Part shown: one piece after another, positions 1 to 60,154 of the stretch
Layout of the letters: each line of letters starts with the position of its first letter
How positions within the stretch are numbered: the first letter of the stretch is position 1
The notes under the pieces: model-generated
Databases searched by the model: none
What the model was told of the DNA's origin: nothing
The model's input: the letters and a program-made list of their open reading frames with translations, nothing else
Made by a program: the position numbers and the translations under genes
Origin: Seison nebaliae
Taxonomy: Eukaryota
Reading direction: 5' to 3'
NCBI GenBank assembly: GCA_023231475.1
Contig: JALJEE010001766.1
Span: 62,001-123,522, forward strand
Length of the DNA: 61,522 nt

Positions 1-1238
1 TGAAATTTCCCAACATAAAAATCTTGAATATCTTTATGATATTTTCTTGCATTTCTCAACGTGACACAAATCCCTCTGTCAGTAATTTCTTGTGTGAACA
101 TCTGATGGAAATGTGATCGTGAGTTTAGAAAAGAAAAATCGAACGTTCCCATTACACAAATAATCATCGACTCGACAATACATTATGAAATCTTCTTCTT
201 TGGAAATACTTCGACTAACATCGATCAAATTGGTTGGTTCTGTTGAGATATAATTTAATGATTCACAAATTTCTTATTAGACGACAAAGAAGACCTTTCA
301 CCATTATTTGAGATAAATCATCCAATTCATAGAATGAATTGATATAGGAGAAGACTAACTGATTCTCATCGGAAGAATCATAAGCATTCGAGGAAAAGAT
401 GTTGATCTGATTTAAAGATGATGATAAATGTTCGTACTTCTCTTCCAAAGGAACCAATCGACATAAATGAGTCCAGAGAACATTCTCGTCGATCTGTTCC
501 ATTTTTTTCAATATCGAATGTCGTTGAAATAATAAATGATTCTTCTTCTCCTCTAAAACATTAAACACTTTTTCTTGTAATTCTAAAATTTGTTCCGTTT
601 TCTTTTCCTCTTGACACATTAGTTCAAATTCGTCTAATTTCCAATATATTTGTCCTTTTTCCATAATCAATAATTCGAATAAATAAAGTTCGTAGAAATT
701 GAGTTGAAATTTCTTCATGAACGATTTGATTATATCTTTCATTTTTCTATTAAATATTCGCCCATGATCATCATCTTTCATATATTTCTTTAGTTTTTCA
801 TTTGTCAATTCGTCATAATCGTTTTCTGGACAGAACGAAGATATACCCATTTCTCCTTCCGTCATCATTAACGGATTCTCACAATTTTTCGACGCTTCAT
901 ATAACCGAGACCAGAATTGAAGGTAATTGAAATGTTTCTCTTCTAAATCCAAACGATTATTTCTACTCAATTTTATTCAAACAAATTAATTATGCAGAAA
1001 ATGTTAACATTAAATTATTACAAATTGTGAAGGCGGGAAATGGTGGAATATCATAAATCAATGTCATATCTGATTGTTTTGGATGACTGACATACAAATC
1101 CAAATTGGTCCAAACGTTATACACTAGGAAACATGTACTTCCACAAATGATCAGTAACCATAACGCTTTCTTGATCTTCGATGATTTGATCATCCAGGGA
1201 ATTCCATGAATCGTTGTTCGATCGATAAATTCACTCAT
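1..1238 (-). CDS. DEG/ENaC (ASIC-like) sodium channel subunit, 5' part; gene continues beyond the left window edge
   Basis: N-terminal TTIHG motif, TM1 (ALWLLIICGSTCFLVY) and FPAFTICN. Splicing three mini-introns joins ORF 263..970 and then the FIMYC and RGICVTL segments expected in the ectodomain. Confidence 0.85.
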
Positions 1239-1591
1239 TATGTTTATGTTAAACTTTTTTTTTTAAAATTAAATAAATATCTGTATTATAAATTTCTATT
1301 AAACTTTCTGATGATTTTGATTAAGTTAAAGAATTTTTCACTTTTTCAGCAATTGTTTATCGTCGAAACGATTTGGAATGAAGAAGAAAATCAAAAAGTT
1401 TTATAATATCATAAAAATAAACAAAATTTTCATATAAAAATTGACAAAACGAATTTCTTCCACTGAACATCGATTAAGAAAATAAGGAGAAATTAAAATA
1501 TGAAAAGGAAATTGATGAAAATGCAAAAAAATTTTTGTGAGAAAATATTTCTATTTGTTTGTCTGACATTTGATTCATTAAGTTTTTCGAT

Positions 1592-3156: not shown

Positions 3157-6100
3157 TCAAATGTAGAGGCTGTTAGCAAAGATGAGATCTCTCTTCAATT
3201 TAGCGATAGCTTCTTCGAATTTCACTATCAATTCTTCATTACCAATCGTCTTAGCTGCACAGATTACTTGGCGGAGTACTTCTTCCAACCGTCTCAAACA
3301 TCGAATAATACTCCCTTCGAATATATTACAGCTTTTTAGTATCTCAGCAAACGATTTCCCTTCGATCCAGTCAGAAGTTACCACCATTAAATTGTCCTTG
3401 AACTTATCCAGATATGAATGTTCATTAATCGTTATTTTTGACTCGGTAAATACTTGGGCAACATGTCGTGCTGTATCTCGCAAACACTTCGTTCCCTCCT
3501 TCAACTTTTCCCCCAGTTTTATTTGGTCGTTCGACTTTTCGTCACAAACAAAACAAGATAAAAGTGCACAAGATTCGGACGCTGTCAAATTATTAAAGAC
3601 GCCATCTAATAACATTTCTGTGAGGACTAATTCGTCGCCTGTATCGATTTCACAAGCCACACGTCCCTTCATCGAAATAACGTCACCCTCCGCACAATAA
3701 TCTAATCGACGCAACACTCTCTTCATTTTCTTCAAGAGATCTTGATGGAGAATTGAATGTGCGTTCTTTAATGCATTCTTCATGTCTTGTAGTTCGTTCT
3801 CTATTCGAAGTTTCGCTTCATATTTATTCAATAACTCGTCCAGATTATTAGCTTGGTAGAGAGAATGTCCGTACAATTTCGTCTCATATCGTTTAATATC
3901 ATAAATGAGTTTCTTGAATTCTTCGTCTTCGATATGCATATCTTCGATTGGATCCATCAATGGTAGCCCGTCGGGATATTTGATAGAACATAATTCATTT
4001 AAAACACTTCCGAGACTTTGACGCGAATCTTTCGATTGTAATTCTTCAGGTAAATATAAACGAATTGAACTGATTTGATAAACGATAGAAAGATGAACGG
4101 GAACAACTTTCATTTCACCAGTTCGATAATTTGGAGCTGGTCTCAAATGCACTATATCTCGTTCATTATTACTAATTGGTTTTACATTTAATAACATGTC
4201 GAGAAGATAACAATCTTTCTCACCCAATTCTGTATTCTTTTTCTGACGAACATTTAAGAGAATTCCCCAATTGAAATCATGTGTCATTGTCTTAATATGG
4301 ATCACTCGACCAGGATGAAGGAAAGGCGTGATGATTTTCGGATCACAAATATATGTCAATAATTGAGAATTTAATTCATGTAAACGTTTCCTCAAATTGT
4401 AATAACTACTCACTTCTTCCATTTGTTGGACTTTTACTGAATACAATTTTTTCACTAAAGTTTTCATGGAATCCCTCAATTTGGGAATGGTAGCGAAATT
4501 TTGAAATTGATAAAATGATCGTTCTAACATAAATTCCGGATTAATTCCTTCCACTCTTAATAAATTTAAAACCATATTATAAGTGAGACGGAAGGCGGAA
4601 TTTAACGGTTTCGCTTCACCTTTAACAATATCTTTACAAGTAGCGGGTGTGATCTTTTTATCGATCGCTAATATTACTAGACCTTTATCGTCTAATCCAC
4701 GTCTCCCAGCACGTCCACTCATTTGAATATATTCTCCAGAATTGAGATATCTCGTTTCTTTTCCATCGAATTTTGTTGGTGAAGTAAAAATAACAGTTCT
4801 CGCTGGCATGTTCATTCCAAGAGCGAATGTTTCGGTTGCATGAAGAACTTTAATTAATCCTTCAGCGAATAATATTTCTGTCACTTCTTTCATTATCGGC
4901 AATAATCCACCATGATGAACACCGATTCCCCGTCGTAAAGTTGGAAGTAAATTTATTATTCTCGATAATTTTTGATCTTCTTCAGACAACGATGAAATAG
5001 CAGAATTGAATACTCTTTCCACCGATTTACTTTCATCCGACGAATTATAATTACAAGGACTCAATTCTAACATATATGATTCACATTCTTTTTTACTAAA
5101 ACTGAAAACGATGGTAGGAAGGAGATTATGATTCTCTGCCAATTTCACCAAATCGAAAGCGACGGTATGATGTTTTTTAACTGGTGTTGATGTCGTTAAT
5201 GAATCCATCGCTTGATCGAATGTTTCTTGTTTGAAAGTTCCTTCTTTATCAACCACTTGATAAACGTTGTTATTACTTACCGGATAAATGAAATGTTCCA
5301 ATGGTACTGGTCGATATTCCGTCGAAACGATATGACATGGTTGATGATGGAGAAATGTGATCCATTGAACGAATTGATCACCATTTGGTATGGTAGCAGA
5401 TAAGAAGACGAAATGAACATTATCTGGTAATAGAATAATACTCTCCTCCCAAACCACACCACGTTCACTATCTCTCATATAATGGATTTCATCAAACACA
5501 ATCCATGCCACTTCTCGAATAATTTCACTTCCTCGATATAACATAGATCTTAAAATTTCCGTCGTCATTACCAAACAAGAAGCATCCGGATTTATTGTGA
5601 TATCTCCTGTCATCAATCCCACATCATTGAATTCCGTCAATAAATCCTGATATTTTTGATTTGACAACGCTTTTACCGGCGACGTATAAATCACTTTCTG
5701 TTTCGACTTCAATGCCAGAGCGACGGCATATAATGCCACTACCGTCTTCCCAGCACTTGTATGAGCGGCTACTAATACCGATTGAATGTTGTGCACACAT
5801 TTCACCGCTTCCATCTGAAACGTATCTAATTTAAATGGAAATTTTATGATCATTTTGTCGATCTCTTCCAAATCTTCATATTCAATTTCCGGTAACAAAG
5901 ATACAGAATGTGTACACTCCGTCGATCGATGAATTTCTTTCATATACAATTGAGGGAGACTCTCGTACATTCTCCTCATAGCATCACTTGTCATTTGATT
6001 GAACATCTCTGTTAATGAAATGGATTGCTCGAAAATCTTTTTCGGATCTATTGCCACTTCATCTGTTTCTGTCACCTTTCCACCCTCTTCTTCTCCCTCT

Positions 6101-6201
6101 TTCGTCAATCCATTCGTCAAAGTAGTTGTAGTGAATTCTTCCAAATCTAAATCACATTTTGGCTCCGCTTCCAAATGACCAAACAAGTCTATATCATTCA
6201 T
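3157..6201 (-). CDS. MTREX: Nuclear exosome RNA helicase MTR4 (SKIV2L2), intronless
   Basis: AHTSAGKT, DEIH, SAT and QMSGRAGRRG helicase motifs, KOW/arch region, DSHCT C-terminus ending RDLIFANSLYI. Confidence 0.97.
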   Translation of the reverse strand: MNDIDLFGHLEAEPKCDLDLEEFTTTTLTNGLTKEGEEEGGKVTETDEVAIDPKKIFEQSISLTEMFNQMTSDAMRRMYESLPQLYMKEIHRSTECTHSVSLLPEIEYEDLEEIDKMIIKFPFKLDTFQMEAVKCVHNIQSVLVAAHTSAGKTVVALYAVALALKSKQKVIYTSPVKALSNQKYQDLLTEFNDVGLMTGDITINPDASCLVMTTEILRSMLYRGSEIIREVAWIVFDEIHYMRDSERGVVWEESIILLPDNVHFVFLSATIPNGDQFVQWITFLHHQPCHIVSTEYRPVPLEHFIYPVSNNNVYQVVDKEGTFKQETFDQAMDSLTTSTPVKKHHTVAFDLVKLAENHNLLPTIVFSFSKKECESYMLELSPCNYNSSDESKSVERVFNSAISSLSEEDQKLSRIINLLPTLRRGIGVHHGGLLPIMKEVTEILFAEGLIKVLHATETFALGMNMPARTVIFTSPTKFDGKETRYLNSGEYIQMSGRAGRRGLDDKGLVILAIDKKITPATCKDIVKGEAKPLNSAFRLTYNMVLNLLRVEGINPEFMLERSFYQFQNFATIPKLRDSMKTLVKKLYSVKVQQMEEVSSYYNLRKRLHELNSQLLTYICDPKIITPFLHPGRVIHIKTMTHDFNWGILLNVRQKKNTELGEKDCYLLDMLLNVKPISNNERDIVHLRPAPNYRTGEMKVVPVHLSIVYQISSIRLYLPEELQSKDSRQSLGSVLNELCSIKYPDGLPLMDPIEDMHIEDEEFKKLIYDIKRYETKLYGHSLYQANNLDELLNKYEAKLRIENELQDMKNALKNAHSILHQDLLKKMKRVLRRLDYCAEGDVISMKGRVACEIDTGDELVLTEMLLDGVFNNLTASESCALLSCFVCDEKSNDQIKLGEKLKEGTKCLRDTARHVAQVFTESKITINEHSYLDKFKDNLMVVTSDWIEGKSFAEILKSCNIFEGSIIRCLRRLEEVLRQVICAAKTIGNEELIVKFEEAIAKLKRDLIFANSLYI

Positions 6202-6509
6202 CTAAACAACAAATCAACGGATTTTGGGGTGGGTGTATCTCCTAAAATTCTTTTGGAAGCTTAATTTTTGAATTATCTAAATTGTATTAAATCAATATTC
6301 AATTCAAAAGAAAAATAGAGGAACAAAATCCACATTTCTTTCTCAATTAAATAAGTTTATAATTTTTATTCTTTATAATTATTTATAGTAGTTTTTCTTA
6401 TCAAACTCTTTCAAATATAATTTCAAAAAAATGGTTGTTTAACAACATTTTAATTTTTTTAATTCCAAGCTTCTCAAATTGTACGAGAAACAAATCGAAT
6501 AAATTTAGT

Positions 6510-6734
6510 ATGGATAAGAAGAAGAGTATCGGACAAATGGTAAAACAAACAAAATATAACGAAGACTTTCCTGAGTTAATGATGAATAAATGGGATAAGG
6601 ATCGTGCTAATAAAAACGATCTAGTTGTAGACGAGTTCGACATTTGGGAGAAGGATTGGGATAACAAAGAAATTAACGATGAATTCTTGAATGAAATTCG
6701 TGAGAAATTGAAAGCATACACGGTAGCTAAATGA
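6510..6734 (+). CDS. SEM1: SEM1/DSS1-like small acidic protein (divergent)
   Basis: 74 aa from ATG 6510 containing WEKDWDNKEINDEFLNEIREKL, which matches the DSS1 WEDNWDD..DDF...LR.EL signature. Confidence 0.7.
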   Translation: MDKKKSIGQMVKQTKYNEDFPELMMNKWDKDRANKNDLVVDEFDIWEKDWDNKEINDEFLNEIREKLKAYTVAK

Positions 6735-6868: not shown

Positions 6869-8640
<1,772 letters not shown>

Positions 8641-13009: not shown

Positions 13010-13403
13010 ATGGCAAGTAATCCGAAAAAACCGAATATCAACCGAAATAAGAGTAGAGGAAATCAGGGGCAGAAACGTCAGGATAACAGTATCGATCTCT
13101 CCAAATATATGGATAAGAAGATACGAGTAAAATTTACGGCTGGTGGTGAAGCAATCGGCATTTTGAAAGGTTTCTACCAAAACCATTTCTCAGAAATTAA
13201 TCCCATTTACTTTAATAGGTTATGATCAATTACTGAATATTGTTCTTGATGGAACGATGGAAGAACGGAAATTAACAACAGATGGAGGAAATGTATCTTC
13301 AGACGAAAAAAGAAAACTCGGATTAGTCGTTTGTCGTGGACCAAATATCACATCGATTTGTCCGGATGACGGATTTGAAACGACAGTAAATCCATTTTCT
13401 TAA
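13010..13403 (+). CDS. LSM7: U6 snRNA-associated Sm-like protein LSm7, 2 exons
   Basis: IDLSKYMDKKIRVKFTAGGEAIGILKG|YDQLLNIVLD..RKLGLVVCRGPNITSICPDDGFETTVNPF; intron 13170-13218. Confidence 0.93.
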
Positions 13404-14173: not shown

Positions 14174-14642
14174 CAGTCATCGATTTGTAAAGTAGTTGAA
14201 AATTTTCCTTTTTATAATCGAAATCGAAATTTTTCTTAAATTTGCTGAATCATTTTCTTTCGAAATTCTTCTCGAAATGTTCTAGAAGAGACTAGAATAA
14301 ATTGATAATGATTCATTTATATACACTTCAATTTGGACTCGTCTTTTCCTTTTCCAACAATTTTTATGAAACATGTCTTTTATAATATCAGATCATTAAA
14401 TTAACATTTGGGTCGAATCTATTTATTAATTTATTGTTGTTGAAATTGTTTGTTTATTCTTAAAAATCTCTTGAAAATTTATTCTTCAAATTTTTTCATA
14501 ATAAAAATTTCTTCACTATTTTTCTTGTTCAATTCAAAGGCACAAATGTAAAGAATGAGTGAGAGGATGGAGAAATGGACTATGTTATTTTACATAAAAT
14601 TTACGGAAGATATTTAAATGAATAAGTATTTGGCTGTTGAGA

Positions 14643-15890
14643 ATGAATCAAAAGGATATTCGTCGAGTCAATCGAATAACATTCAATGAATTAGGTGACT
14701 GTTTCACCACCGCCTCTAATTCAGCTGTTAATATTTATGAAGTGAATCCTTTACAATTATTGACATGTATCGATTATAATTTGATTGGATCGGTCGAGTT
14801 CGCTCAAGTCCTCAATCATTCCAATATAATCATCTTTTGTTCAGGAGCACAAACGCATAGTCGATTCAATCCACATACATTAATCGTTTGGAATGATCAG
14901 AGTCAATCCGTCGTCTTCAGTTATGTGGTGAAGGAGATGGTGATGAATGGAAGAATATTGAAGAATCAACTCATTATTATAACATTGAATACGATATACA
15001 TTTTCCGATTTCCACCAATTTTCACAGATGATGGAAATAATGAAAATTTTTTAAAAGAAACAAATTCAAATGTAAATTTATTATCGAAATTATCGACAGG
15101 TGAAAATCGATTAGGTCTGTTCGATGTCCACGAATTGTACGAAATTCATCAATTACTCGTTTTTCCTGATAAGAAGAAAGGATCCGTTCATATTATCGAT
15201 CTATTCCGATTGAATGAGACTCAAGATGAAACTTATGTAAGCCATATCAATTATTCATTACAAGCTCATGAACATGAATTATCATCAATTAAATTATCGA
15301 TCGATCAAAAACTTTTGGCAACTGCTTCCTCAACTGGAACATTAATCCGATTATTCAATCCGTTAAAACGGGAATGTCTTTTAGAATTACGTCGGGGATT
15401 GGAATTTTCTCGAATTTATTCAATCGACATCTCCCCACAAAACCGTTATCTGGCGATCAGCAGCGATCGTTCCACGATACACATTTGGTGGATTGGGGAA
15501 GTGAATCATCCGACTCAAAAGTATGTGGGAAAATCAATGAAGAATTATCTGATAGCTCCAACACTCAATTACGCAAAGAAAATGTATAAAGATATCGCTA
15601 AAACGATGAATGATCCAACAGATCCATCGAACTTAATCGAAGAAGTTAAATTGATGGCACCGGTTTGTTCCAAAGTTCAATTAGAATCTATTGCCAAATA
15701 TACCGTCAGAACAGAACATCCTTCATTGGTGAAATTCTTGAAGAATCCTAATCAATTCGATGTTTTAAGAGTCGCTACCGTTTGCTACAATGGCGATGTT
15801 TATTATCATCAGGTCGATCTGCAAAATTATCATTCATATCGTTATGATTTCTGCAATTTCTCCGACGTGCCTGACAATGACTCTTTCTAA
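14643..15890 (+). CDS. WDR45: PROPPIN WD40 protein WIPI3/WIPI4 (WDR45 family)
   Basis: LQAH..LLATASSTGTLIRLF..ELRRG..SSDRSTIHIW; the LRRG phosphoinositide motif is typical of WIPI3/4. A possible short upstream exon lies near 14555. Confidence 0.88.
   Translation: MNQKDIRRVNRITFNELGDCFTTASNSAVNIYEVNPLQLLTCIDYNLIGSVEFAQVLNHSNIIIFCSGAQTHSRFNPHTLIVWNDQSQSVVFSYVVKEMVMNGRILKNQLIIITLNTIYIFRFPPIFTDDGNNENFLKETNSNVNLLSKLSTGENRLGLFDVHELYEIHQLLVFPDKKKGSVHIIDLFRLNETQDETYVSHINYSLQAHEHELSSIKLSIDQKLLATASSTGTLIRLFNPLKRECLLELRRGLEFSRIYSIDISPQNRYLAISSDRSTIHIWWIGEVNHPTQKYVGKSMKNYLIAPTLNYAKKMYKDIAKTMNDPTDPSNLIEEVKLMAPVCSKVQLESIAKYTVRTEHPSLVKFLKNPNQFDVLRVATVCYNGDVYYHQVDLQNYHSYRYDFCNFSDVPDNDSF

Positions 15891-16482: not shown

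Positions 16483-16484
<2 letters not shown>

Positions 16485-16514
<30 letters not shown>
16485..16514. repeat. (TG)15 microsatellite
   Basis: Perfect TG dinucleotide run. Confidence 0.95.
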
Positions 16515-16515
<1 letters not shown>

Positions 16516-17533: not shown

Positions 17534-17575
17534 TGTGTATGTGTGTGTGTGTGTGTGTGTGTATGTGCGTGTGCG
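17534..17575. repeat. Imperfect (TG)n microsatellite
   Basis: TG run with TA/CG interruptions. Confidence 0.9.
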
Positions 17576-18495: not shown

Positions 18496-20498
18496 ACGAA
18501 CTTAACCAATCTCAAAACCAGTCTCTATTCCAACGTTCCAATAATCGAGGTGGAGGAGAGACTGATGAAAACAGAAGCAGCAGCTGGTGACCAAGGGAAA
18601 GGTGATGCTACACAAGCATGCACAAGTACTCCGGTAACACATCCAGATGGTACTCCATCACGTGTGATTCATATAAGGAATCTCCCTCCAGATACGACGG
18701 ATGTAGATCTGTTGCAATTCGGCTCGAAGTTTGGCGAAGTTGTTAATCTGTTATATTTGAAGGGGAAGAATCAGGCCTTCCTCGAAATGAATTCGTTGGA
18801 CAACGCACAACGTCTCGTCAAACATTATACGACCACTCAGGGTTTAATCCGATCGCGACCAGTTTTCGTACAATTCTCCAACCATCAGAAACTCAAAACG
18901 AACTCCTCAACTACTGATCGTATTGGTCGGAATGATGATGGAGAAATAGAAGCCGTTTTACCAAGTCCAGTACTTCGAGCTATCATTCATCATTTACTTT
19001 ATCCGGTGACTTTGGAAGTCTTCCAAACAATCTTTTCTAAATATGGACCAGTTCTTCGAATTATCACATTCAATCGGAATGACCGATTTCAAGCATTGAT
19101 CGAAATGAAAGACGCTAAATGTGCAGCTGATGCTAAGAAAGTTTCATTTCTCATCATTATTCCTCTACATAATTTCCTCTTTCCAGGCGTTACATGGCCA
19201 AAACATTTACACGGCCTGTTGTACTCTACAATTGGAATATTCGAAATTACAATCGTTGACAGTCAAATATAATAACGATAAATCTTGTGATTTTACCAAC
19301 ATGGAAGGTTAGTTAATTTGTTGTTTATTTGAAGATGTTTAAATGTAATTTATAATTTAGCGAATCATAAAACTGCTCAAGATGTTTGGACGAACTCTTA
19401 TCCATCACAAAATCCGATGCAGACGAATACTCAATTGAGCGCTTTACAATTAGTTGCCGCCTTACATCCATTAGTTTAATAATTATTTTGTTGAATAAAT
19501 TTTTTTCAACTCAAATCATCTATAGCAATATGTCAATCCACCTAATCAAGGTGCATCCTCCTCCAATTCCAATGCTCTCTCACCAATGCATTTAATTAAT
19601 TTAAATTCTCAGTTAGCTCCACACATCAATACGATTGTTAGCACTTGTACGTATGTCTCCCATAATCACTTTCCAGCAGTTACTCAGCACAGGCAAAGTG
19701 TTATTAGTCACAAATCTCAATGACGATCTAGTTACGTTGGATGGACTTTTCACTTTGTTTGGTGTTTATGGTGATGTTTATCGAGTGAAGATCCTTTATC
19801 AAAATAAGACACAAGCATTGGTCGAATTTAGTACGACTCAAGGAATGGTAACTGGTTAGATATTAATTCTCTTTCACCTTCTCTTTCAACCTAATTCTTC
19901 AGCTAAAAGTAATCTGGATGATGTGAGATTGTGGGGGAAGAATATCAAAATTTTCCATTCGAAATATACGGTCGTCCAAATGCCTAAGGACAATCAAGTT
20001 TCTTTTGAAATAAATTTATTCTTCTCAATTTCCTTCTAACATTTCTGAACCTGAAGGATGCCGGTCTAACCAAGGATTACACGTCATCCAATCTTCATCG
20101 TTTCAAGAAACCGAGAAGCAAAAATTTCAATAACATCTTCCCACCATCTCAATATTTACATCTATCGAATATACCGTTACATTTAATATAATTTATTCAT
20201 TTCATATCAGTTCATTGTTAATTATAGTCCAAAAGTGAATGAAGGTCAAATAATTGAAGCGTTCGGTCGTTATGGAACAGTCAAAACATTCAGATTCTTC
20301 CCTACCGATCAGAAGATGGGTGTGATTCAAATGTCATCGATCGAAGAAGCATTACATGCACTCATTGTTAGAAATTTCTTATATATCAATAATTTTTTAT
20401 TTTCAAATTATCATCTCTCAATTAATGCACAGGGAATGCACAATTGTCAATTAGTCAATGGAATTCATCTGAGAGTGACATTCTCGAAAGCTCATTAA
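18496..20498 (+). CDS. PTBP1: Polypyrimidine tract-binding protein (4 RRMs), at least 9 exons; 5' end uncertain (acceptor at 18495, first ATG 18565)
   Basis: [21 protein letters not shown] (RRM1), [19 protein letters not shown] (RRM2), [17 protein letters not shown] (RRM3), [27 protein letters not shown] (RRM4). Confidence 0.93.
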
Positions 20499-20838: not shown

Positions 20839-22884
20839 TCAAATGATGTTAAGTAATGATTGAATTTCGCTATCTAATGACACCACATCGCATTTTGGCC
20901 ATCTGAAAAAATTGATTAGAAACGAAAGAAGGAAACAAATTTCTCACTTCGTCCAAATAAGCCGAACGATATTTGGAATTTTTATATCTTGCTCTACGAA
21001 TTGCATATAGTATGGTAGTTTCTGCATAGCAGTATCTCCATAATTGTTGACAGTATCAATAAATAATCGAACAAATGAATTTAGTCCATCAAGACCATTA
21101 TAATAATTCAATTGAAATCGATGTTCCAATCGCCAATTTCTTAACAATTCACCGTTCGTACTAAAGAGTATTCCGAAATTATAATTATCGATCAACGTCA
21201 CCCAAATCGGATACATCGGCGTTTTTAACATTGATCCCACCTAAATAATTTTATCGAATAAAATTTGTTGATTTATATATTATATATTAATAATGAGAAA
21301 TAACTTCATCGGGATTTTTCTTCTTCAAATGAATTTTTTGAAGGAAAACATCTTTAACTTGATGTTTCTTCTCTTTCTCATCATCTTCTTCCACTTCTTC
21401 CGTCTCTTCCAAAAGTTGATTTTGAATTAAATTTTCTTGAGTCACATGTCTCAAGAAACCGATATCTGATCTCGAATGAACACCGAGCGATGGTCTCTCC
21501 TTTAAAAGGAACAATGGAAATTTATAGATGTCAATCTAACCATCGGTTCTCCATCGTCATCAAATTCAATGTTTCCGTTATGAACATTAGCAACGGCATA
21601 GCCGGTTAATGCCAATAAGATCAAATCCACCCGACATTCTTCATATACTCCCAAAATTCGAATGTTATTGTCAATGATACAGGAATGTTGTATCGAAATT
21701 TTCGAACTACTATCTGATTTTGTATAATCAGAATAATTCTGATCCTCTATCAATCTAAAACAACTTTCTTAAAATACGACAAGAGAATAAAGATAAACCC
21801 CTCGATAGTTCTAGTTAGGAGAAGCGAATATAAAAATAAAAGAACACCACCAGGTCGAGTGAACCATTCGAGATGGTCCGTCAAGAATTGGAATGCTTCC
21901 TCTCTTGAATGAAATTTATAGATGAGCAACTACGAAAAATGGATTAAGTGTTAGAAAATAATTCTAATACTAATTCGGTAAAACCGTCAGAACGGTAAGA
22001 TTGAGTTGTTTTTACTGATGGATGTCGTCCTGTAAGGACGATATTAACGAAACGATTCTCAGTTGTATTGGCACATTTCCATAAGCAATCTGTCAAAGCG
22101 TGAGCTAATGCCATTTTTCTTTGAGGTTCAGTTGGTTGGAAACTGGAAAAATGTTGACGGTTTTTCATTAGACAAATTAAAGGAAACCCAGGTAAAAAGT
22201 CTGTTTGATCAATTCCCGTAAAGAATAATCTTTTTGTTATATGTGCTTGAATTGCCAAAATTAAACCACGGGCGGTCGTCTTTAAAATTTGAAAAATTTC
22301 AAAAACTTCATATAAAAATTAAATTTCAAAACTCGACCAGAATATTTCAAAGACCAGGGACATTCCGAATACATTGATCGGAATTCGAAAGCAGCATTCC
22401 TCCAATCTGTAGCTATCGGATGAATGATACTTCCTACGGTAACTAATCTCAATAAAGTGGCTGATTCCGTATCGATCGGAATACCGTTAGCAGGTGCAGT
22501 CATGTCAACTCGTCGAACTGTTTGTCCTAATTTAAATTTCTTTATTCGATCTATAACGAAATGGTAGAGAGAGTAGAAGAAAATGATCGAACTAAAGTCG
22601 TATAAATTCTCATCGGAATCTACTGATTGTTCTTTTGGCATGAATAATTCAAGTTGTGCAATTCTCTAATTTAATCGAATTAGACGGTATTGTTAAAAAT
22701 GTGACATGCAAACCTGGTTCAAGGCTTCCGACGAACGAAAGAAGGAATTGCATTCTTGCAGAATCTTTTCATCGAATTCTTTTGGTGTTGTTTCTTCCTC
22801 TATAATTGGCGGACCGATGGATGACATTTCGTCGACAGATACGTCGCCAATTGTGTCGAACGTCACTTCATCCATTTCGGACAT
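20839..22884 (-). CDS. MINDY4B: MINDY4B-like (DUF4205) probable inactive deubiquitinase, multi-exon
   Basis: GGVLFIYSLLLTR, LILLALTGYAVANVHNG, RSDIGFL, VGSMLKTPMYPIWV, IWTKWP. The catalytic GPCG loop reads TTARG. Confidence 0.78.
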
Positions 22885-23168: not shown

Positions 23169-24100
23169 ATGATGAAGGATCCTATTCTACCACATTCCAA
23201 ACAGAAATACGATTGGGATTGTGGAATTGCCTGTTCTCAAATGATTCTCAGGTTCGACTTTCTTCTCCATAATATTTTCCCTAAAATAAAGGAAAAAGTT
23301 TTTTTTACTTCTTTCTAATGTTTTTTCTTCCACATGAAAATGTTCTGATGTTAATTTCATTTTTATGGTATAGTTTTATGGAATTATATGACGCGAACAA
23401 ACTGAAACGAACAATGAGAGACACATTAAATTTATCGACGAACATTTGGACAATCGATTTAGCTGTGATATTATACTTGATGGGAATGGACCGTCAATCG
23501 ATGAAATTCTTTTCCATTTATGCTGGTGCCAATCCCAAACATAAAGAAATGTCATTCTACAGGAACACTAGTCATGAGGACGATGAAATTCGAATTAATT
23601 TGTTATTCCATGTTAATTCCATTTTTCTCATTCATAAATTCATTATCTCCATTCTTCAGTCTTTAATTCATGAAAAGAATTCATTATTGATCGAAGTGAA
23701 ACATTTAACAATTCAAGACATCATTCAGGAAATGAAATCTTCATATCGATGTGTCTGCATCGCTCTAATCGATGCGACTAAAATGCATTGTGAATGGTGC
23801 ACAAAAGGATGCACTGGATTAGATTCGTGCATACAATTGTGCAACAAATCGATGGGACCATGTCTCCACGGTCTTTTAGGATATTGTGGTCATTTTATTT
23901 TGATAGAAGAATTTGATGAAGAAAAAGAATTTATTTATTATCACAATCCTGCTACTAAACAAGAATTATGTTGTACCACATTCAAACAATTTGAAAAGGG
24001 TAGAACAGCAATAGGCACTGACGAAGATTTATTATTCGTTCCACTTAAAACTCCAACAATTACACAACCCAAACATTTGTACGAAAGAGAATCAATTTAA
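23169..24100 (+). CDS. GUCD1: Protein GUCD1 (C39 peptidase-like fold)
   Basis: QKYDWDCGIACSQMIL, NIWTIDLA, YCGHFILI, YYHNP, RTAIGTDEDLLF. Intron 23252-23373 plus a probable in-frame 48-nt intron near 23612. Confidence 0.9.
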
Positions 24101-25117
24101 ATTCGCTAATTTCTTATTTATCGTCGTATGAAGTTGTTTTGTGATGGATTGATTGAAATTTTCTATATTCGTCATCGCAACATTCGATTGATTGAACGAA
24201 GAGAATAACTGACAATAATAACAACAACAACAATTACAATGATAATGAATCGAAAGTTTCTAAACTTTAAATCGATATGGATTCATCTCATCGTAACTCA
24301 TATCGTAAATCAATTCGAGATCTTCATATTTTGTCGGTTCGGGTCGATGATATTGTTGAATAAATAATTCATTCACATTCAACTCATTGTCCAATAAGAA
24401 ATCTTCGTTTAAATTTCGAACAATATTCAAAAGAAATGTTCGAATATTCTCATCCATTCCACCCACTACTATATACCCAACGAAATTCTTTCAAAATCAT
24501 TTCACAAAAAATTCACTCACTTTCTTTCTTTCCACTCATTAAATTGATGTGTATATACCAAGTTTCCCAACTGATCTCCTGATTGATGAAAAGTGAACGA
24601 TCATTCAGGTAGAAATCTAATCTGATCTATTCTCATTACATTCTTAGGAAGATATTATTTAAATTAAAATAAACGTAATTTTTATCATTGGATTGATTGA
24701 ATAAATCTCTCTTGAAATTGTCGACGAAACTATTTACTTCTTTTATTAATTTCGGAGATTTGATACATAACTAAAATAATTTGATGATATTTTATCGGAG
24801 TTAATTAATTAATATTATTTCAATTAACATAAGAGATGTTGGTTGAAGAAAATGAATAATTCTCATATTCAATTTGATGCGTCTTCTCATTTTCATGAAA
24901 TTTCATTCGACATCGATTGAACAATATTGTATGTATAGCAGCTATTTCATCAATTACCAATCATACCACAAATGGAAAACGAGAAACCTTTACATAAATC
25001 TTCCACATTTCTTCCATCAGTTTTCTATTTAAATTGATTGTCAGATCAAATTCAACAAACATTACTAACCACTTCCAATTTGATAACTCTTGTTTTCTTC
25101 AGTTTATGATCAAGCAT
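24092..25117 (-). CDS. ATG101: Autophagy-related protein 101 (HORMA domain), 7 exons, mostly invisible in the ORF track
   Basis: The spliced protein LEVKTDGRNVEDLCKAAIHTILFNR..ISYLCIKSPKL..RLDFY..ISWETWYIHI..LNIVRNLN..MNPYRFK parallels ATG101 LEVSVEGRQVEE..VLHTVLLHR..LEFY..IPWEVW..QPYLYK. Confidence 0.85.
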
Positions 25118-38355: not shown

Positions 38356-42752
<4,397 letters not shown>

Positions 42753-43087: not shown

Positions 43088-44256
43088 ATGAAATTTATAG
43101 TTCTATTGTTGTTAATTGGTCTTTGTGGCAGCATTCTTTGCGATTGTCCATGTGGCAAGAAAGACAAAGATTGTTCTTGCAAAGATAAGAAACCATCGGA
43201 TGAATGTAAGGACAAGAAAGATTGTGCCAATATAAAAAAAGACGAAAATTTTCCTTGTGACAAAGACTGTCCGTGCAAAGATAAGAAATGTTCGTGTAAA
43301 GATAAAGAATGTCCATGCAAAGACAATGAATGTCCCTGCAAAGATAAGAAATGTCCATGCAAAGATAAGAAATGTCCATGCAAAGATAAAGAATGTCCAT
43401 GCAAAGATAAAGAATGTCCATGCAAAGATAAAGAATGTCCATTTAAGCAGCAATTAACTTGCTCTAATTGTCAAAAAGCTTTCGGTTATTATAAATTTTT
43501 CCTATTTTCTAATTAATTGATTTCTAATTAGTTCAGAAATCGGCACCGGATTTTAAGGCGACCGCTGTAATCGGTAATGAATTCAAAGATATTCAATTAT
43601 CAGATTATTTCGGAAAATATATTGTCCTATTCTTCTATCCATTAGACTTGTTCGACATTTTCTTCCTATTAATTAATTTTATCATCTAATTTTTTAGCAC
43701 ATTCGTTTGTCCAACAGAAATCATTGCATTTAATGATCATGTGGAAGAATTCGAAAAGATTAATACTCAACTATTGGCTGTATCAGTAGATTCTCATTTT
43801 TCACATCTCACATGGTTTCGAATTTATTTGATGGAAGTTAATGAAAAGAATTCCTTTTAGGACGTCTGTTCCCAGATCGAAGGGAGGTTTGGGTCCAATG
43901 AAAATCCCATTGATCAGTGACCTCACTCATCAAATTTCCAAGAATTATGGTGTTTATTTAGAAGAGGCTGGTCATTCTCTAAGGTTTCATTTTTTTATTT
44001 GAAATCATTTTCATCATTTTTTAGAGGATTATTTATCATCGATCCAAAAGGAATTATTCGTCAAATCACCATCAATGATTTACCAGTTGGACGGTCGGTC
44101 GATGAAACTAAACGACTAGTACAAGCATTCCAGTTTACTGATGAGAATGGTGAAGTTTGTCCAATCGATTGGAATCCAGGAAAGGATACAATTATTCCAT
44201 CACCGGAATTAAAACTAAAATATTTTGAGAAGCATGGACAAAAGAAGGAATTATAA
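43088..44256 (+). CDS. PRDX4: ER/secretory typical 2-Cys peroxiredoxin (PRDX4-type) with an N-terminal Cys-rich repeat extension, 5 exons
   Basis: Exons 43088-43484, 43532-43649, 43698-43814, 43861-43983 and 44025-44256 give signal peptide + Cys-rich region + FYPLDFTFVCPTE, GGLG, EVCP and C-terminal KKEL. Confidence 0.92.
43268..43441 (+). repeat. Coding 21-bp minisatellite, 8 full units encoding C[PS]CKD[KN][EK]
   Basis: Consensus tgtccatgcaaagataa(a/g)(g/a)aa repeated in tandem. Confidence 0.95.
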
Positions 44257-45166: not shown

Positions 45167-46517
<1,351 letters not shown>

Positions 46518-46653: not shown

Positions 46654-49255
46654 ATGCTAAATAAAATTATCGTACTTATTTGTCTCCTATTTCCATTATC
46701 TGACTCTCATGAGATGGTTGAATTGTATGATAAATTATCTCAATATTCATTAGTTAACTTTCCGTCAGGATGATTCAAATTAAACTGTCTTCTGTCTAGT
46801 ATTCCACGAGAGATGATTATTGTGATAATTGTACGTCTCATTGTCTGAAGGAGAACGATGAGAATAATTTATGTTATTGTCATCATGATCTAATTGTGAA
46901 CGAATGTCCAATTCAAAAGGATTACCATCAAAACGGTTTTCTTTTTTTGGAAAACTATTTTATAAATATTTTTCTAGACATCTTCTACAACCAATGGAGT
47001 GATTGGTCTCAATGTTCTCATGATTGTGGTGGTGGAGTGACCACACGTTATCGTTCTGTTTGTTTATCTCAAAAAGAAGACAAATGTCTCCAACCGAAAA
47101 TCGAAATTTGTCAAACAATAAATTATCAGAATTTCAATGGAATCCAATTATCCGATTTACTTCAAAGTAAGAAATGTAATACTATTCAATGTACAAGTTG
47201 AAAATTTTATTAAATTTTTAAAGAACTTCATCTCTTTCAGCTTATAGCGAATGGAGTGAATGGAGTGATTGTTCTACGAAGAATGTTTGTGGAGAAGGAG
47301 AAAAAAGAAGAACAATCGAATGTTTCGGTTCTAAATGTCACAAGTCGATTTGGAGAGAAAAACGATCTTGTTCCACAATTTCTTGTGATTTCAGTTTCGA
47401 TAAATTTCATCGAATCTTCAAAATCACTTTCTTTAGCTCATCTTTTCTTAGAATCCACAAATAAGTCACATGGAGGACGAGTCGTAGCTGAGAATTTAGT
47501 GGAGTCCCCAAAAGAATCATTTAACGGGAAACGATATATTTGTCGTACAACTGAAGAGATTGATAACGAAATTTCGAAATTTCTTTGTAGGAAATATTTT
47601 AATTCGGAAAAATTTTTAAGTTTCACTTTTCATCATTTGATTATTTCATCTTTTATAGTTGGTAATGGTGAGAAGAAGAAAAATGAAAAAATTATAAAAT
47701 TTACACAATTCTCCTCACTCAATTTTTATCCGTTGACGAATCTACATTCCGATTGGAATGACGATGAATTTCAATGTGAATCAATATTAGAAGTCGCTTG
47801 TTCTATTGATGGGGAGTGGTCTAGTTGGGAAGAATGGTCTTCATGTAGTGTCAGTTGTGGAGAAGGTACAAAGAAACGCAGTCGAAAATGTGAAAATAAA
47901 ATAAACGAAGGAAATGATTGTCCAGGTGACGATATCGAAGTACTGCCATGTTCAGCTAAGAGATGTGGATGTTAATATTCTTTTTTCAATTTATCGATCA
48001 AATTTTTTAAAATAATTCTAACTATTGAAGATGAACGTAGTTGTAGTCATATTTATGATATGAAAAATGGTGAAATGAAATCGGGAGAATATTATATCGA
48101 TCCGAATAAAACGAATGAAAAGTTCCTAGTTTATTGTCAAACGGAAGACGATGATGCCAAAACGATAATTAGTTAATATACTCAAACTATTTGATTTTAG
48201 GAAAATATCCCTGGAAAAATTTAGAAATTTTTTTCAACTACGCTAATTAGATGGATTTCAGTCGTTATTTTTCGGGTAAAAATTGATGAATTTTGCTCGT
48301 TTTTTTTTTAATATATATCTTTTCATCGAGCTGAATCCAATGGTTTAAAAAAAAACATCATTTTTGATGTATTATTATGAGAGCAAGAACTGTGAACAAA
48401 TTGAAAATAAAGAGAAAAAATAAAATTTTTTGAACCATATTTCCATCAATTATTAACACTAATCTATATCTAATTTTCTATGTTAAGATATTTTTTGAAA
48501 CTTCAGAAAAAATTCTATCTAACTTTGTCAAAACTATCTTCCTACGTATTTTATATCCATCTTATTTACGTTGTTGAAAAAAATTTCTAAATTTTTCAGA
48601 GATACTTTCTTACAATCAAACTATTTTTTTTAAAATTGATTTTTTTATTCATCTCTAGAACATAATAATGAGGAGAATGTTTTCATTAACGATTTCCAAA
48701 CGACGACAATCAATTATCTCACTTACAATATTAGTCAGGAACAAATTCTCCAAATAATTGAAGTTCGATATTAGAGTAATTATCGATTGAATTATTTATA
48801 TTAAAGTTATCGTCCCAATGTCGACAACATCTCCAATGGAAATGTATGAATTCAATGATTCATTCACCAGAATTTTATGCAGCTAACGCGTTTTCATTTA
48901 AGTACTTCTTTTTTAACTCTAATTTCTGGTGTGTAGAAAACGTTTAACTTTCGACGAGAAATATTATGTTTCGTGGAGCAATCGTGTTAGAGAGAAGAAA
49001 GGATATTTCGGTCGAGTTCCATCCAATGCGGAAAGTTGCGAATGTGGATTATTAGGAACTTGTTATAATCGGACGACATTGTGTAATTGCGACAATAAAT
49101 TGGATGGTTGGCAGATGGATGAAGGATATATTGTTAATAAGAATGATCTACCGATAACTTCCTTCAATATTATTGGGAGGAGAATGAGTAAGGAGCAACA
49201 AGAAGGTTATTGGACCATCGGTCATTTGGAATGTAACGGAATTGAAGAATTTTAA
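46654..49255 (+). CDS. Secreted multidomain protein: TSP1 repeats, SRCR-like segment and CASPR/neurexin-IV-type fibrinogen-like domain
   Basis: Signal peptide MLNKIIVLICLLFPLSDS; three WSxWSxCS..CG.G TSP1 motifs; RSCSHIY..SGEYYIDP..FLVYC and CECGLLGTC..CNCD..WQMDEG..KNDLPIT..IGHLEC. No TM segment seen. Confidence 0.75.
48193..48617. mobile_element. Non-autonomous Mutator-like DNA transposon (MITE), 425 bp, inside an intron
   Basis: About 64-bp imperfect TIRs (GATTTTAGGAAAATATCCCTGGAAAAATTTAGAAATTTTTTTCAAC versus reverse complement GATTGTAAGAAAGTATCTCTGAAAAATTTAGAAATTTTTTTCAAC), G..C termini, exact 9-bp TSD aaactattt at 48184-48192 and 48618-48626. Confidence 0.88.
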
Positions 49256-49347: not shown

Positions 49348-49767
49348 TTAGAGTTTTGGTCGATCCTCATCTAAAACGTATGTTTTGTAATCAGTATTAG
49401 GAACATACCACTAAACGAATTATGAATGATAGAAAGAAAGAGAAGAGAAATTGACGAACTTTGTATTGTTTGAATGAACCATCGGAATTCTCCATTCCTC
49501 GCCATGGATCCATTTCCTTTCGACGGTTCACTCTAATTGAAAAGAATTGAAGAATGCGAGAGAAAGATCTTCGTTTTAACTTGACATCAGGAGATGATTT
49601 CAATTCATGAAATGAATTAATGAACGCAATAGTCGAACTGAATACAACACAAGAAAATAATGGTATCAACTTGTTTAATGAAGAGGAAAATTATTCAAAT
49701 GAATGATGGGAAAAGTAACGAAGTAATTGCTCATCAAAGAGCGTGGAGTCAATCCTCGCATAACCAT
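49348..49767 (-). CDS. NDUFA4: NDUFA4/COXFA4 (MLRQ) cytochrome c oxidase subunit, 4 exons
   Basis: Spliced MVMRGLTPRSLMSNYFLIPLFSCV..SPDVKVNRRKEMDPW..QYKWYVPNTDYK..RPKL matches the family LIPLF..PDV.W.R..EPW..QYKFY..DY pattern. Confidence 0.85.
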
Positions 49768-50682: not shown

Positions 50683-51228
50683 TCAAAACTGTCCAATTTT
50701 ATATCCTGCGCCAGAGATGCCTTTCTTAAATTCATTCTTTTGTATCAATCCGTCATCTGAAAGGAAATTTTGAAAATGAAGTTGTCATATCGATTAATTA
50801 GAAAGGAAACTGTTGAGATCGAAGTATGAGAAAAGAGACGACACAATTTCATTGTCAACATATTTGGACAAGGCACTCTTATAAGCCATGTCGTGAGATA
50901 ATTGTTTAATTAGAGTTTGTGGTGTAATGAGCATTTCTGCAGGAACAACTGGCACTTTTTCTCCGTTCGTCACGAGTGGATTCCTTTTGCCAAATCTGAA
51001 ATTAAGAAACAAAATTTTTAAGAATTAAAATAATTTTCCCAACCTAGGACGTCCGACAACTGAATAATAATCATGAAGTTTTCTTAAATAATCGCGCAAT
51101 TCAGATTTGGATTGAAAGCGGTCAGGTTTGTTGGGTGGAGCAGGTAAATCGGAGAATTGAGCATAACAAACTGATCCGACGGTTAATATCAATAAAATTT
51201 TGGAGAGATGATTTGATACACTTTGCAT
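50683..51228 (-). CDS. NPF: Neuropeptide F/Y precursor, 3 exons
   Basis: Signal peptide, 40-aa QFSDLPAPPNKPDRF..LRDYLRKLHDYYSVVGRPRF followed by GKR. The family-typical intron falls inside the last Arg codon of RPRF (50996-51043); second intron 50757-50810. Confidence 0.93.
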
Positions 51229-55466: not shown

Positions 55467-58400
55467 TTATTTAGTTGCTGAATGGCAGAAAGGACAAGCT
55501 CGACGACCGTGAATCTCCTTCTTCAACGCATAATGTAGACAACGTCTACATTTCCAACTTTCTTGATCATCAGCCATAATTTGACCGGAAGCGACTGAAT
55601 ACCGAAATTTTCTTGAACAATTCGCACAAGTATCTGCCCTATAATTATATTGGAAAAATATGATTGAAAATATTTTAATTTAACCAATCTTTCATTGTCT
55701 TTTGACAATAGGGACAAGTAATAATCGGTTCTTTCGGATCTTTCGGTGGATGATCACTAAATATGTGGAATGCTAATTGTTCGAATTGATGTCGATCATC
55801 CTCTCCAATACTTTCATCCGTTTCCAATCGAATGAAAGCATTACTAGCTATTCGGAAATGATGTGCAGATATGGCACATAAAGTGATGAGACTGTAAATC
55901 ATTTTGACATCAAAAATATTCTCGTAATTAGATAAGATTAAAGAGGTGAGCATTGCAATTTTAGTATTTCCTTCTTTCAACTGTTTCTGAGCTAACAGAT
56001 AATAATGCCAAGCTTCGGCACCTTTCCATCCAAATTCCACAACTGCCACCGTATTCTGTTCATTTTCATTAACGATGTTATTAAAGGCATTCGCTCTCTA
56101 AACGAGTCAAACGATCTCAAAAATCCAAAAAAATAAGATAAATGAAAACTTTATTCGAATGATTTTCTCGTCGATGTGTTCGGTTTTGTTCGAGTAGAAT
56201 ACCGATCAAAATATACATCTTTTTCAGGAGAATTGGAGGATTATGTCGTTTTTTCGATTCGTCATTCGCTCTCTAAAACATAATTCATATAATTAGAATT
56301 AATGAGAATTAAAGAAAACATCTAATAATAATTTCGCTGCTTTGACGTATTGCTTTGACTTCCTGTACAATTCCACTGCTTGAAATATATTATTTTGTTC
56401 CAACAACTTATTACCAGTCCGATCTAGAATCACATCTATTGATGCTGACATCTCATACTTTTGAGCAAGAGTGACACCTAAATCGAATTGGGACAATCGG
56501 ATACAACATTCAATCGCTTCTTTATGTTTCGAGCACTACAGCAGAACATCATTCATTAAAAATTTCTCTAAATTCTAACTCTCAATAATGCTTCAACTGC
56601 TCGTTGACACATTCCCACACTCTCATACATTTCCGCCAATTTCTTATTCAATTTTAGAGAATCGTGAAAAAATCATAAAGCTAAACTTGTAGCAAATCAT
56701 AATCATCAGTGACTGAATTTAACATCAATTCTAATCCATGATAATCTTCCATATTGTAATAACAATCAGCAATTTTTGATTGATTATGTGCCTTCAAATA
56801 ATACTTCTCAGCAGCTTTCCTGAAATTTGATTAATTCTTATCAAATAAATCAATCGGGAACCATTGACCTTGTTCGAAATAATGATCACCTAATCTATTT
56901 GATGCTTCCTCCATCATTCCATCATCAACGATTTGTTCTTTCGATTTCTTCAGACTATCATACAATTTTTGCCAATCGCCAATCTTCCGAGAGAAAGCCC
57001 ATGCTAAGTCTCTGTGTGGAAGAAAATTAAAAATTTTAACTTTTAAACCAAATAGATTAACTGTCTATCAATATCTTTATATAATTGATAAGAGATATCA
57101 TATCGACCCATATAAGCGGCTCGTTCAGCACCTCGAATAGTTTCATTCTAGAATTTTTATATTATCGAGAATGTTCAGAGAAAAAGAAAACGAAACTGGA
57201 TAGGCAGATACTTTTTTTACGATTTGTAAACTAAAATTATCTTTCGCTTTAATGAATGCCGTTTCAGCTAAAGGAAAATTTTCTTTGATAAATGCTTCTC
57301 TCCCCAATACTTTCCTTTAAAGACATTGGCAAATAATGAAAATGGACTTAAATAAAACCATAAAATTGGATGTTTCGCATCTTTCACAAATTCATACATT
57401 TCATTCAAATCATTTGCTTTAGCAAAACATTCATCTAATATCTAAACAATTCAATTGACATATAACAACTTTAGAATGAAAATTTAACAGCAGCTCGAAA
57501 TCGCACTACGTAATCAGGTAACGGTTCTTCAGGTTTCTTCAGCAGTTCGTCCATATAAATTGTGGTGACTTCCAAATCTTTAAAACTTTGTAAATAACCA
57601 GAACATCTGATCGGTTCTTCTGCTTCTCCACGATTGATGATAATCAAATTCTCCTTTTCCATAATGGCCAATTCATTGGGATCATCTTCTGACCAAATAC
57701 AATCCGAACTTAATCGATGTTCAATCGCCGTCATCTTATCATGAGCATGAGCTCGATCTATTGATTTGACGCGTAGCAAACCGTCGGAATCGATAACAGC
57801 TAATCGACTATCGTCACAGTTCATTCGGAAAATTTTTGGTCTTTCACATTCGATATTTCTCTTTTCGATCAAAAGGAATTGTGGAACGGAATACATTTGG
57901 ATGAAACCAGATTGACGACCAATTATTATATATTTCTCCGATGCTGTTAAGGCTGTTATCGGATCTTCGATCTGATTTCAAAAAAGTTCTTTCTACGAAA
58001 TTTTAAATAAAATTAACATCCTTTTTATTTCCAGGTTGATGATCATCAATATGGAGTTCACTTTAAATAAAATTTATTTTAAATTTCATCTCGAAAATCC
58101 AACAATGGTTTTGACGACTTCCTCAATTGAGCTCGATCGAATATCGATAAATTCTTCATCGATTTTCGGGTCCAAATCGTAATTTTTGAATTGTCACAAA
58201 TGATGCAATGTCGTTTAGTTAAGTTCATGAAAATTGCTTCCTGATTGGTATGGAAGAACTCCATTGGAATACCTTGAAAGGATGACATTGGAGAAATTGA
58301 AGATTAGTAGAAAGAACCTAAAGAATTGCAAATTCTTATAATGTATTTCGAATCGACTTCATCTTTCGATTCGGATGATTCCGATTCTGAGAAGATAGCA

Positions 58401-60154
58401 CAAGCATCGGTAGTGAATGCTAGAAATTTTATATGTTTGTACATTTTTAGATGTTGTAAGCCAGTATCCAAATCATAGAACATTACATAATTGATTGCAC
58501 TGTTTTGTTGGAGGAAGACATAGACTAAAGTATCATCAAACATTCCGCACTATCATTAGAAGACGATTGAGAAATTTGAAAATGGAAAAATTTAGAATTG
58601 ATAACTTTCTGTTCAGTTCGAACATTAGCAAAAAATATCAGATTGTCAATTGCAATGGCAATTCGAGTATCATCATAATCCCAAGCCAGCGATGTCAATA
58701 ATTTCCCGTCGAATTTAAAAATTGAAACATTCTAAATGAAAAGAATTCTTAACAAATTTTTACCATGAAACAAAGTTAACTTGTCCGAATGGTGAGAAGA
58801 ATTGGACGATATTTCGAGCACCATCTGTATATTCATCTGAAGTAGATAACACGCCACCAATGGCGAGAATACTGCCAGTATTATTCCATTCCATAGATTG
58901 AATAGAGGAATGTGCGTCAATCATTACCGGTTTCTCGTCGTATGCATGTCTCATCAATTGCAAACGTCCATTTGGAAAAGCGATGGCTAACGTCGGTGCT
59001 TCAGCTGATACGAATCCTCTCCTTCCATCATACCATTTCAAAGCGACCACATCTAACTTTGTCATTTTATCATCCAAACAATTAATAGGTAGTTGTTGCT
59101 ATTAAATGTTCAATTTCGATGTTCATTATTCTCGATCAATGTAAACTAACCATAAATACACCATCACTTTTATAAGCATAAACATTTCCTTCACCAGTGC
59201 CAAATAGAAGGATTTCACTTGATGGTGACCACTGATGATTAGAAGAATGATTTTTTAAAAACAAAAGAAAATTTCAATTGTCAACTTCTACTGCAGTTAA
59301 TTTCTCTTCGACTATTGTCCTTCCCCATAATCGATCGCCATCGGCTGTTCCAATAATGACAGCACCATCTTCGTAGATGATTGCCATATATTGTCCATCG
59401 GAACTCCATTTGATTCCAGTGACGGTACTCTTTCCTCGATTATTTGTCATCGACTGATACCAAGCACCTAAGAATAAATTTATTTGAATAAAGGAATCGA
59501 GAAAATATTGAAATCATCTTCAAATCATTAAACAGAATCACCTTTTTTATCTAGCTCAAATTGCTTTATAATTTTGGAATCGAAAGTCAATAAAGCTTTT
59601 TCCGGATGCCATTCAATTATATATACCGGATTCCCTATTACCCAAACAAATAGAACGAAAATTAAATTAAAATTAAATTAAATTTATCAAGAATCGAAAA
59701 AAAATTAAATGAAATTATTTTTAATTGGAAAATTTTTTAATAAATTTTTAAGTTACCGTTTTCTAACGACCATACAACAATCTCACCAGATGGATCTACC
59801 GAACTTAAATTAACTAACATTTCGTTCCATGACAAATCTATAATTCTCCCTAAATTCATCTTTTATAAAAGATTTGAAATTGATTTATCTAACCCTTATG
59901 TCCTTCCAAAGTTTCATTCATCGAAATTTTTAGATTAGCAGCGACACCACGTTCACGAATATCATCGGAAACAAGTTGGTGAATTAATTTTATTATTTTA
60001 ACAACTCCATTATCAGTTCCAGCTGCTACATATCCATGCATATGATTCCAAGATATTTTTGTAACCACTTGGTTGCTTGGCATCGCCACCTGTAATATGG
60101 TGTGAAAAGCAAAGTAGTAAATTAAATAACTTGTTTGCTTAAATAGATGAACAT
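55467..60154 (-). CDS. WDR35: Intraflagellar transport A subunit WDR35/IFT121, about 20 exons
   Basis: MFIYLSKQ|VAMP start, NLKISMNETLEGH, IIYEDGAVIIGTADGDRLWG, VQFFSPFG, GWKGAEAWHYYLLAQKQL, C-terminal CPFCH. Confidence 0.95.

Follow-up and report, generated by a model that had tools for sequence, protein, structure and literature searches.

The DNA analysed here is a stretch of 61,522 nucleotides from the genome of Seison nebaliae (GenBank assembly GCA_023231475.1, contig JALJEE010001766.1, positions 62,001 to 123,522 of the forward strand), called the window below, with positions counted from its first letter. The GC content is 29–36% along the window and 31.9 and 34.0% in the assemblies of the species, whose haploid genome has ~46 Mb (PMC8351084; papers given by identifier are cited for their accessible parts). 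Introns were curated in 17 genes of the window, 89 in total, and 80 of them begin with GTT, whereas 5 begin with GTA, 2 with GTG and 2 with GTC. Few features of animal genes are as constant as the purine at position +3 of the intron and the 5' end of U1 small nuclear RNA (snRNA). The shift of +3 to T found here is real, strong and specific to the Seison lineage. The genes and their introns are:

55639..60130, minus strand, WDR35: 20 introns, 19 GTT (41–56 nt) and one GTA (59756-59468, 289 nt)
38917..41731, plus strand, TRPC channel gene: 12 introns, 9 GTT, 2 GTC (38917, 39286) and one GTA (40357, 44 nt)
6878..8490, plus strand, glutathione reductase (GSR): 5 GTT introns (7162, 7392, 7833, 8012, 8445), from a bacterial homologue (L001), and a possible first intron with GTA (6878-7038)
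43485..44024, plus strand, peroxiredoxin (PRDX4-like): 4 GTT introns, two from a bacterial homologue (L002) and two from a neutral gene finder
45188..46377, plus strand, WDR5 (Pfam PF25175): 7 GTT introns including one of 108 nt (45682-45789), two of the seven placed by hand
19141..20432, plus strand, RRM protein, presumably PTBP-like: 8 GTT introns, from the neutral gene finder with Pfam RRM matches
20903..22332, minus strand, MINDY3/4-type gene (Pfam PF13898): 7 introns counted, 5 GTT, one GTA and one GTG, with one ambiguous first intron omitted
46753..48936, plus strand, thrombospondin-repeat gene (Pfam TSP_1): 8 GTT introns counted including one of 487 nt (48172-48658), with one ambiguous intron omitted
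24209..24987, minus strand, gene that we take to be ATG101-like: 5 introns counted, 4 GTT and one GTGAGT
50757..51043, minus strand, NPF/NPY gene (Pfam PF00159): 2 GTT introns, the first within the RPRF motif, presumably an ancient intron position of the NPY family
13170-13218, plus strand, LSM7: one GTT intron
13855-13807 and 13638-13594, minus strand, ZFAND2: 2 GTT introns
14584-14626, plus strand, PROPPIN/WIPI: one GTT intron
1008-963, minus strand, ENaC-type gene: one GTT intron
2497-2457 (GTT) and 1892-1843 (GTA, 50 nt), minus strand, Kazal-Ig gene: 2 introns
23252..23373, plus strand, GUCD1-type gene (Pfam PF09778): one GTT intron of 122 nt
49411..49719, minus strand, B12D/NDUFA4-type gene: 2 GTT introns

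Every junction rests on protein evidence. Public gene models may carry a bias of their own, and therefore a spliced aligner was used that required GT or GC together with AG, ignored the base at +3, and was fed non-Seison homologues only. It gave 36 introns (20 in WDR35, 9 in TRPC, 5 in GSR and 2 in PRDX4), here called tier A, while three wrong calls, two in TRPC and one in PRDX4, were discarded. All 20 WDR35 introns were exactly recovered from a non-Seison homologue (P0122), and 9 of the 12 TRPC introns from a rotifer profile without Seison. The exons of the two genes are a 100% match to the Seison nebaliae proteins SNEBB_009265 (P0121, WDR35) and SNEBB_009258 (P0273, TRPC), and mapping of these proteins resulted in 20 junctions for WDR35, each with a single GT-AG solution although any intron ends were permitted, and 12 junctions for TRPC. 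The gene finder, which is likewise neutral at +3, was trained on six genes of the window, WDR35 and TRPC included. In the curated set, homologues placed 36 introns, the gene finder together with reading placed 47, 3 rest on annotation only, and 3 were placed by hand. Ambiguous gene-finder introns in the MINDY, thrombospondin, Kazal-Ig, ENaC, ATG101-like, GPCR-like and 53568-55305 genes were discarded before the count, as were false calls within coding exons. The spliced frame of WDR5 is open for 324 codons; a search of protein representatives with this gene gave long WD40-repeat proteins only and was not used.

An earlier note on this DNA, made from the letters alone, had tallied about 51 GTT donors among 59 introns, and this is borne out by the larger set. 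The GTT introns that it named are all present (GSR 7162-7202 and 7392-7439, LSM7 13170-13218, four in PRDX4 and two in NPF), and so is the same trend in WDR35 (19 of 20) and MINDY (5 of 7), while the GTT intron that it gave as 109 nt is the one of 108 nt in WDR5 on re-reading. In tier A the donors are GTT in 32 of 36 cases. T makes up 46% of the intron interiors and is the base after an unused interior GT in 49 of 89 cases (55%), so that T at +3 lies far above background (binomial p = 9e-13 for 80/89 and 1e-5 for tier A). A is found at +3 in 6% of the donors against 33% in intron interiors, a five-fold depletion, indicating that the position is under selection and not relaxed. In the unfiltered output of the gene finder, GTT begins 87 of 108 GT introns of real genes but 28 of 79 spurious antisense introns. 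The commonest five-base start is GTTAA (15/89). An unused GTA or GTG is located 41–66 nt from the acceptor in 21 of 77 short GTT introns, in 9 of these at 43–59 nt.

The introns have a median length of 47 nt, and 82 of 89 are 40–60 nt long. Lengths divisible by three are under-represented (18/89, p = 0.005; 6/39 in the two best tiers), which is consistent with selection for the decay of unspliced mRNAs, with the caveat that stop-free introns of such length are easier to miss, a candidate lying near 23612-23659. Two intron classes separated by length had been suggested, and for this there is a weak tendency, since GTA or GTG donors make up 2 of 5 among the long introns but 5 of 84 among the short ones (Fisher p = 0.048). 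A clean split is rejected: five of the seven GTA/GTG introns are short (41–55 nt), three of the five long introns have GTT, and one of the long GTA introns, the candidate first intron of GSR (6878-7038, donor GTAAGT, 161 nt), is placed by hand and not fixed by homology. It may be an alternative first intron. At 6869-7071 (plus strand) two N-termini are possible for GSR, either a short MAK exon joined through the 161-nt intron, or one that begins in frame at 7003 and has an acid-free leader resembling a mitochondrial presequence.

For comparison, metagenome contigs were scanned with a rotifer TRPC alignment, giving 80 loci of which 35 were aligned, 7 of them bdelloid-like (best matches to Rotaria or Adineta proteins, 25–32% GC) and 28 from other animals; no acanthocephalan and no clearly monogonont locus was among them. 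Introns called in the two groups numbered 71 and 155, those with well-aligned flanks 70 and 78, and the final sets, without duplicates and GC donors, 59 and 71. With the same aligner the bdelloid-like donors are GTA in 48, GTG in 6 and GTT in 5 cases, in introns with a median of 56 nt and 40% T, and the other animals have GTT in 4 of 71. The GTT share differs between Seison and the bdelloid-like loci with a Fisher p of 7e-25, and short AT-rich introns alone thus do not produce GTT. Definition of the introns by length alone is not supported either, because bdelloid-like introns of similar length (<=70 nt) keep GTA in 41 of 46 cases. Among C. elegans introns, 58% have A at +3 (PMC6140464). Four TRPC introns of Seison, at 40541, 41032, 41470 and 41686, are found at the same codon and phase in the bdelloid-like loci, and all four have GTT in Seison but GTA in 19 of 19 bdelloid-like copies (6 loci), indicating that old introns were converted. 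At one other point in the comparator data, a minority GTT donor is conserved: a single TRPC intron position is covered by four bdelloid-like loci (L003 10696, L004 2058, L005 2360 and L007 2339), each of which has GTT together with +5G there.

The Seison introns are U2-type GT-AG introns that lack the purine at +3. GT-AG ends are possible at each of the 32 junctions obtained with the two public proteins, and the acceptor has a pyrimidine-rich 3' end and YAG, with T, C and A in 57, 25 and 18% at -3 and 65% T at -5. The purine of the GURAGU consensus is present at +3 in only 7 of 89 donors. The branch-point motif CTRAY occurs in 18 of 89 introns compared with 10.1 +/- 2.9 in shuffles, YTRAY is not enriched, and no fixed distance was seen. 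The U12-type donor motif is RTATCCT, and no donor (0/89) starts with GTATCC, so the introns are not of this type. Besides the 90% T at +3, the donors have 49% A at +4, 28% G at +5 (8% in the background), 31% G at -1 and 51% A at -2, and +6 is uninformative. Positions +4 to +6 had been described as poorly conserved; they are weak, but not random, with A at +4 in 44 and G at +5 in 25 of the 89 donors. Among the 80 GTT donors +5G is enriched 3.2-fold (p = 2e-6), and -2A, -1G and +4A 1.4–1.5-fold (p = 0.005–0.02), with -3C enriched to the same degree. Enrichment of -2A, -1G, +4A and +5G is the pattern of U1 pairing in the normal register. The donors as a whole hold 5.9 bits of information compared with 7.0 bits in the bdelloid-like loci.

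If the bases at -2, -1, +4, +5 and +6 are scored for matches to the canonical site, the 9 non-GTT donors of Seison have 3.0 matches on average and the GTT donors 1.9 (p = 0.003; 0.009 without the hand-placed tier, and 0.02 in the homologue and annotation tiers only). The comparators are reversed, GTY donors holding more canonical matches than the others (3.6 vs 2.7, p = 0.001). This opposite compensation indicates that in Seison U+3 acts as a match.

An altered reading of the donor, by the 5' end of U1 or by associated factors, had been proposed earlier as an alternative to definition largely by length, and it is the former that best explains the data. As the cause of the roughly 90% U+3, a U1 snRNA that carries A as its sixth base is somewhat more likely than not. 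The pairing region of such a U1 would be ACUAAC instead of ACUUAC, with A6 as the partner of U+3 in the normal register. Old introns would have gone from A+3 to U+3 as U1 changed, and their very short length, with definition across the intron, might make the weak remaining donor tolerable. The GTA and GTG donors could persist through better pairing elsewhere in the site, or because a further U1 gene of the standard type exists. We consider the odds about even for the complete scheme, in which the main U1 carries A6, the old introns followed in step, and the residual donors are served by extra pairing or a retained standard U1. Calculated for unmodified bases, the mean duplex energy with the standard U1 end is -2.1 kcal/mol for the Seison donors and -5.5 for the bdelloid-like donors, whereas the A6 end gives -3.2 and -3.9 kcal/mol, respectively; an Entamoeba-type A5A6 end gives -2.25 kcal/mol.

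Several observations speak against an A6 U1. The A6 end raises the pairing only to a weak -3.2 kcal/mol, T shows no enrichment at +6 (33 of 80 GTT donors), and 21 of the 80 have none of -1G, +4A and +5G, so that something beyond U1 pairing must help. The compensation test includes 9 non-GTT donors only, and fits any reader that prefers U+3, whether RNA or not. In two non-GTT introns (MINDY and TRPC) an unused GTT lies 51–64 nt from the acceptor. An Rfam scan of the window found no spliceosomal snRNA and only 2 weak matches below threshold. Furthermore, a standard U1 is kept in most lineages with changed donors, such as yeasts, Giardia, Trichomonas, Micromonas and Thecamonas (bioRxiv 10.1101/2022.06.08.495308, PMC10581693), and in Fritillaria, where the intron ends have changed (PMC13326754). 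These precedents concern changes at +4 or of the end dinucleotides, and not at +3.

It is possible, but less probable than an altered U1, that the U1 sequence is unchanged and that a protein or a later step prefers U+3, with short length doing most of the intron definition. Candidates would be an altered U1C or LUC7, a lost pseudouridine at position 6 of U1, a G-U wobble of the U6 ACAGA box at +3, or changes in SNRNP27K, METTL16 or PRP8. The low donor information fits this, and 51 of the 89 donors have fewer than two matches to AGU at +4 to +6, compared with 27.2% in C. elegans, where a SNRP-27 mutation relaxes +4/+5 (PMC6140464). In yeasts, +4 switches go with METTL16 and SNRNP27K while U1 and U6 do not vary (PMC10581693), the intron ends but not the 5' end of U1 have changed in Fritillaria (PMC13326754), and GUU could pair better with the U6 ACAGA according to the Entamoeba preprint (10.1101/2022.06.08.495308). 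With U6 pairing, however, T would be expected at +4 and +6, and it is enriched at neither position (29/80 and 33/80). The known effects of proteins and of N6-methyladenosine (m6A) are on +4 and not +3, and the enrichment of exonic -2A and -1G together with +4A matches the U1 pattern.

An unchanged U1 might also pair one base downstream, or bulge U+3, so that its A7 reads U+3. A +1 shifted register is reportedly used at GUUAAGU-type sites, as described by Roca and Krainer in 2009, and it would explain U+3 with no change in U1. The Seison donors resemble such sites in beginning with GUU, -1A is common (33/80), and GTTAA is the top start. The positions specific to this register are not enriched, however, namely -2C (12/80, p = 0.7), +5A (26/80, p = 0.56) and +6G (9/80, p = 0.22), and there is no significant enrichment of -1A (p = 0.12) or +7U either; G is enriched at +5 and not at +6, GTTAAG and GTTRAG are not found in any of the 80 donors, and the only enriched base, +9T, fits a T-rich intron body equally well. 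This explanation is therefore improbable, and the shifted register is rejected.

It is still less likely that the GTT introns are a recent introner family, or an artefact of hand splicing or self-trained annotation. Their uniform length is what introners would give, and public gene models may have been trained on their own bias, but the same junctions come from non-Seison homologues and the four TRPC positions are common to Seison and bdelloid-like genes. Similarity among the 84 short introns is barely above that of shuffles (mean local score 15.4 vs 14.4–14.6, maximum 39 vs 29–37), with no terminal inverted repeats (9.2 vs 9.4), and an introner origin is rejected. Least credible is that +3 is no longer read and carries T by mutation bias or because the introns are T-rich, since the 46% T of the interiors and the 55% after unused GTs fall well short of 90%, A is depleted at +3, and at 40% T the bdelloid-like loci still have A+3 in 48 of their 59 introns; it is refuted in the window.

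Other features of the window are mentioned briefly. Intron density is high, with 20 introns within the 3.5 kb WDR35 coding sequence, and among genes with one intron per 150–300 nt there are long coding stretches free of introns, in MTR4 (3157-6201, 1014 aa), PROPPIN (14643-15890) and an ankyrin-repeat protein (27077-30268, 1064 aa). The single-exon MTR4 gene (minus strand) falls within the rotifer-acanthocephalan clade with an SH-aLRT of 99, on a very long branch in a quick tree that carries a long-branch warning and has no labelled flatworm or gnathostomulid rows. It stands head to head with a small DSS1/SEM1-like gene on the plus strand (Pfam match below the cut-off), ~300 nt apart (6201-6734). 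The peroxiredoxin gene model has, at 43088-43484 (plus strand), about 110 residues rich in Cys and Lys with CPCKDK-type repeats, following a signal peptide and in frame with the peroxiredoxin domain; the repeats have no Pfam match and resemble a metallothionein. The regions 15900-18400 and 30300-38300, the latter upstream of the TRPC gene, are poor in genes and contain simple CA-type repeats, unlike the very compact rest of the window. A motif scan of the window for U1-like ends gave no standard end, and 2 and 2 matches to two variants, two of the matches lying on the opposite strand of the TRPC and PTBP gene regions. At the window end (~61200-61420, minus strand) a YADD motif in the gene-finder output suggests a reverse transcriptase fragment of a non-LTR (long terminal repeat) retroelement.

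In the literature searched, which covered few subscription journals, GTT-dominant donors are not described for Seison or for any other animal. The accessible parts of two papers that treat Seison and splice sites, PMC8351084 among them, hold nothing on donor sequence, and the six spliceosome terms looked for are absent from the supplement files of PMC8351084. The closest known system is Entamoeba, which has GUUUGU donors and a co-evolved U1 (ACAAAC), and in which the change of +3 and +4 was called unprecedented (bioRxiv 10.1101/2022.06.08.495308). Like Entamoeba, Seison has a dominant U+3 (80/89) in the normal register, but the strict 88–90% GUUUGU is found in an intron-poor protist, and GTTTGT is found in 0 of 89 Seison donors. 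Seison is an intron-rich animal in which +3 alone has switched, +4 prefers A and +5/+6 are loose. The +4 A/U switches of Saccharomycotina linked to METTL16 and SNRNP27K are similar in being a lineage-wide change of one donor position, but they occur in fungi and at +4 instead of +3, with U1 and U6 invariant (PMC10581693). Large-scale unusual 5' splice sites are also present in the tunicate Fritillaria borealis (PMC13326754) and, as GA/GG donors, in the copepod Eurytemora affinis (PMC5714493). These animal precedents concern the end dinucleotides, whereas Seison keeps GT-AG and has its change at +3.

How a spliceosome and many thousand introns change jointly is an open question that has been studied mainly in intron-poor protists and yeasts. 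The Seison switch has taken place in an intron-rich animal, at intron positions common to close relatives that kept GTA. If U1 were unchanged, a reader of +3 that is not yet known would be implied, and for that reason either outcome is informative. With gene finders that were trained on other animals, the exons of Seison would probably be placed wrongly.

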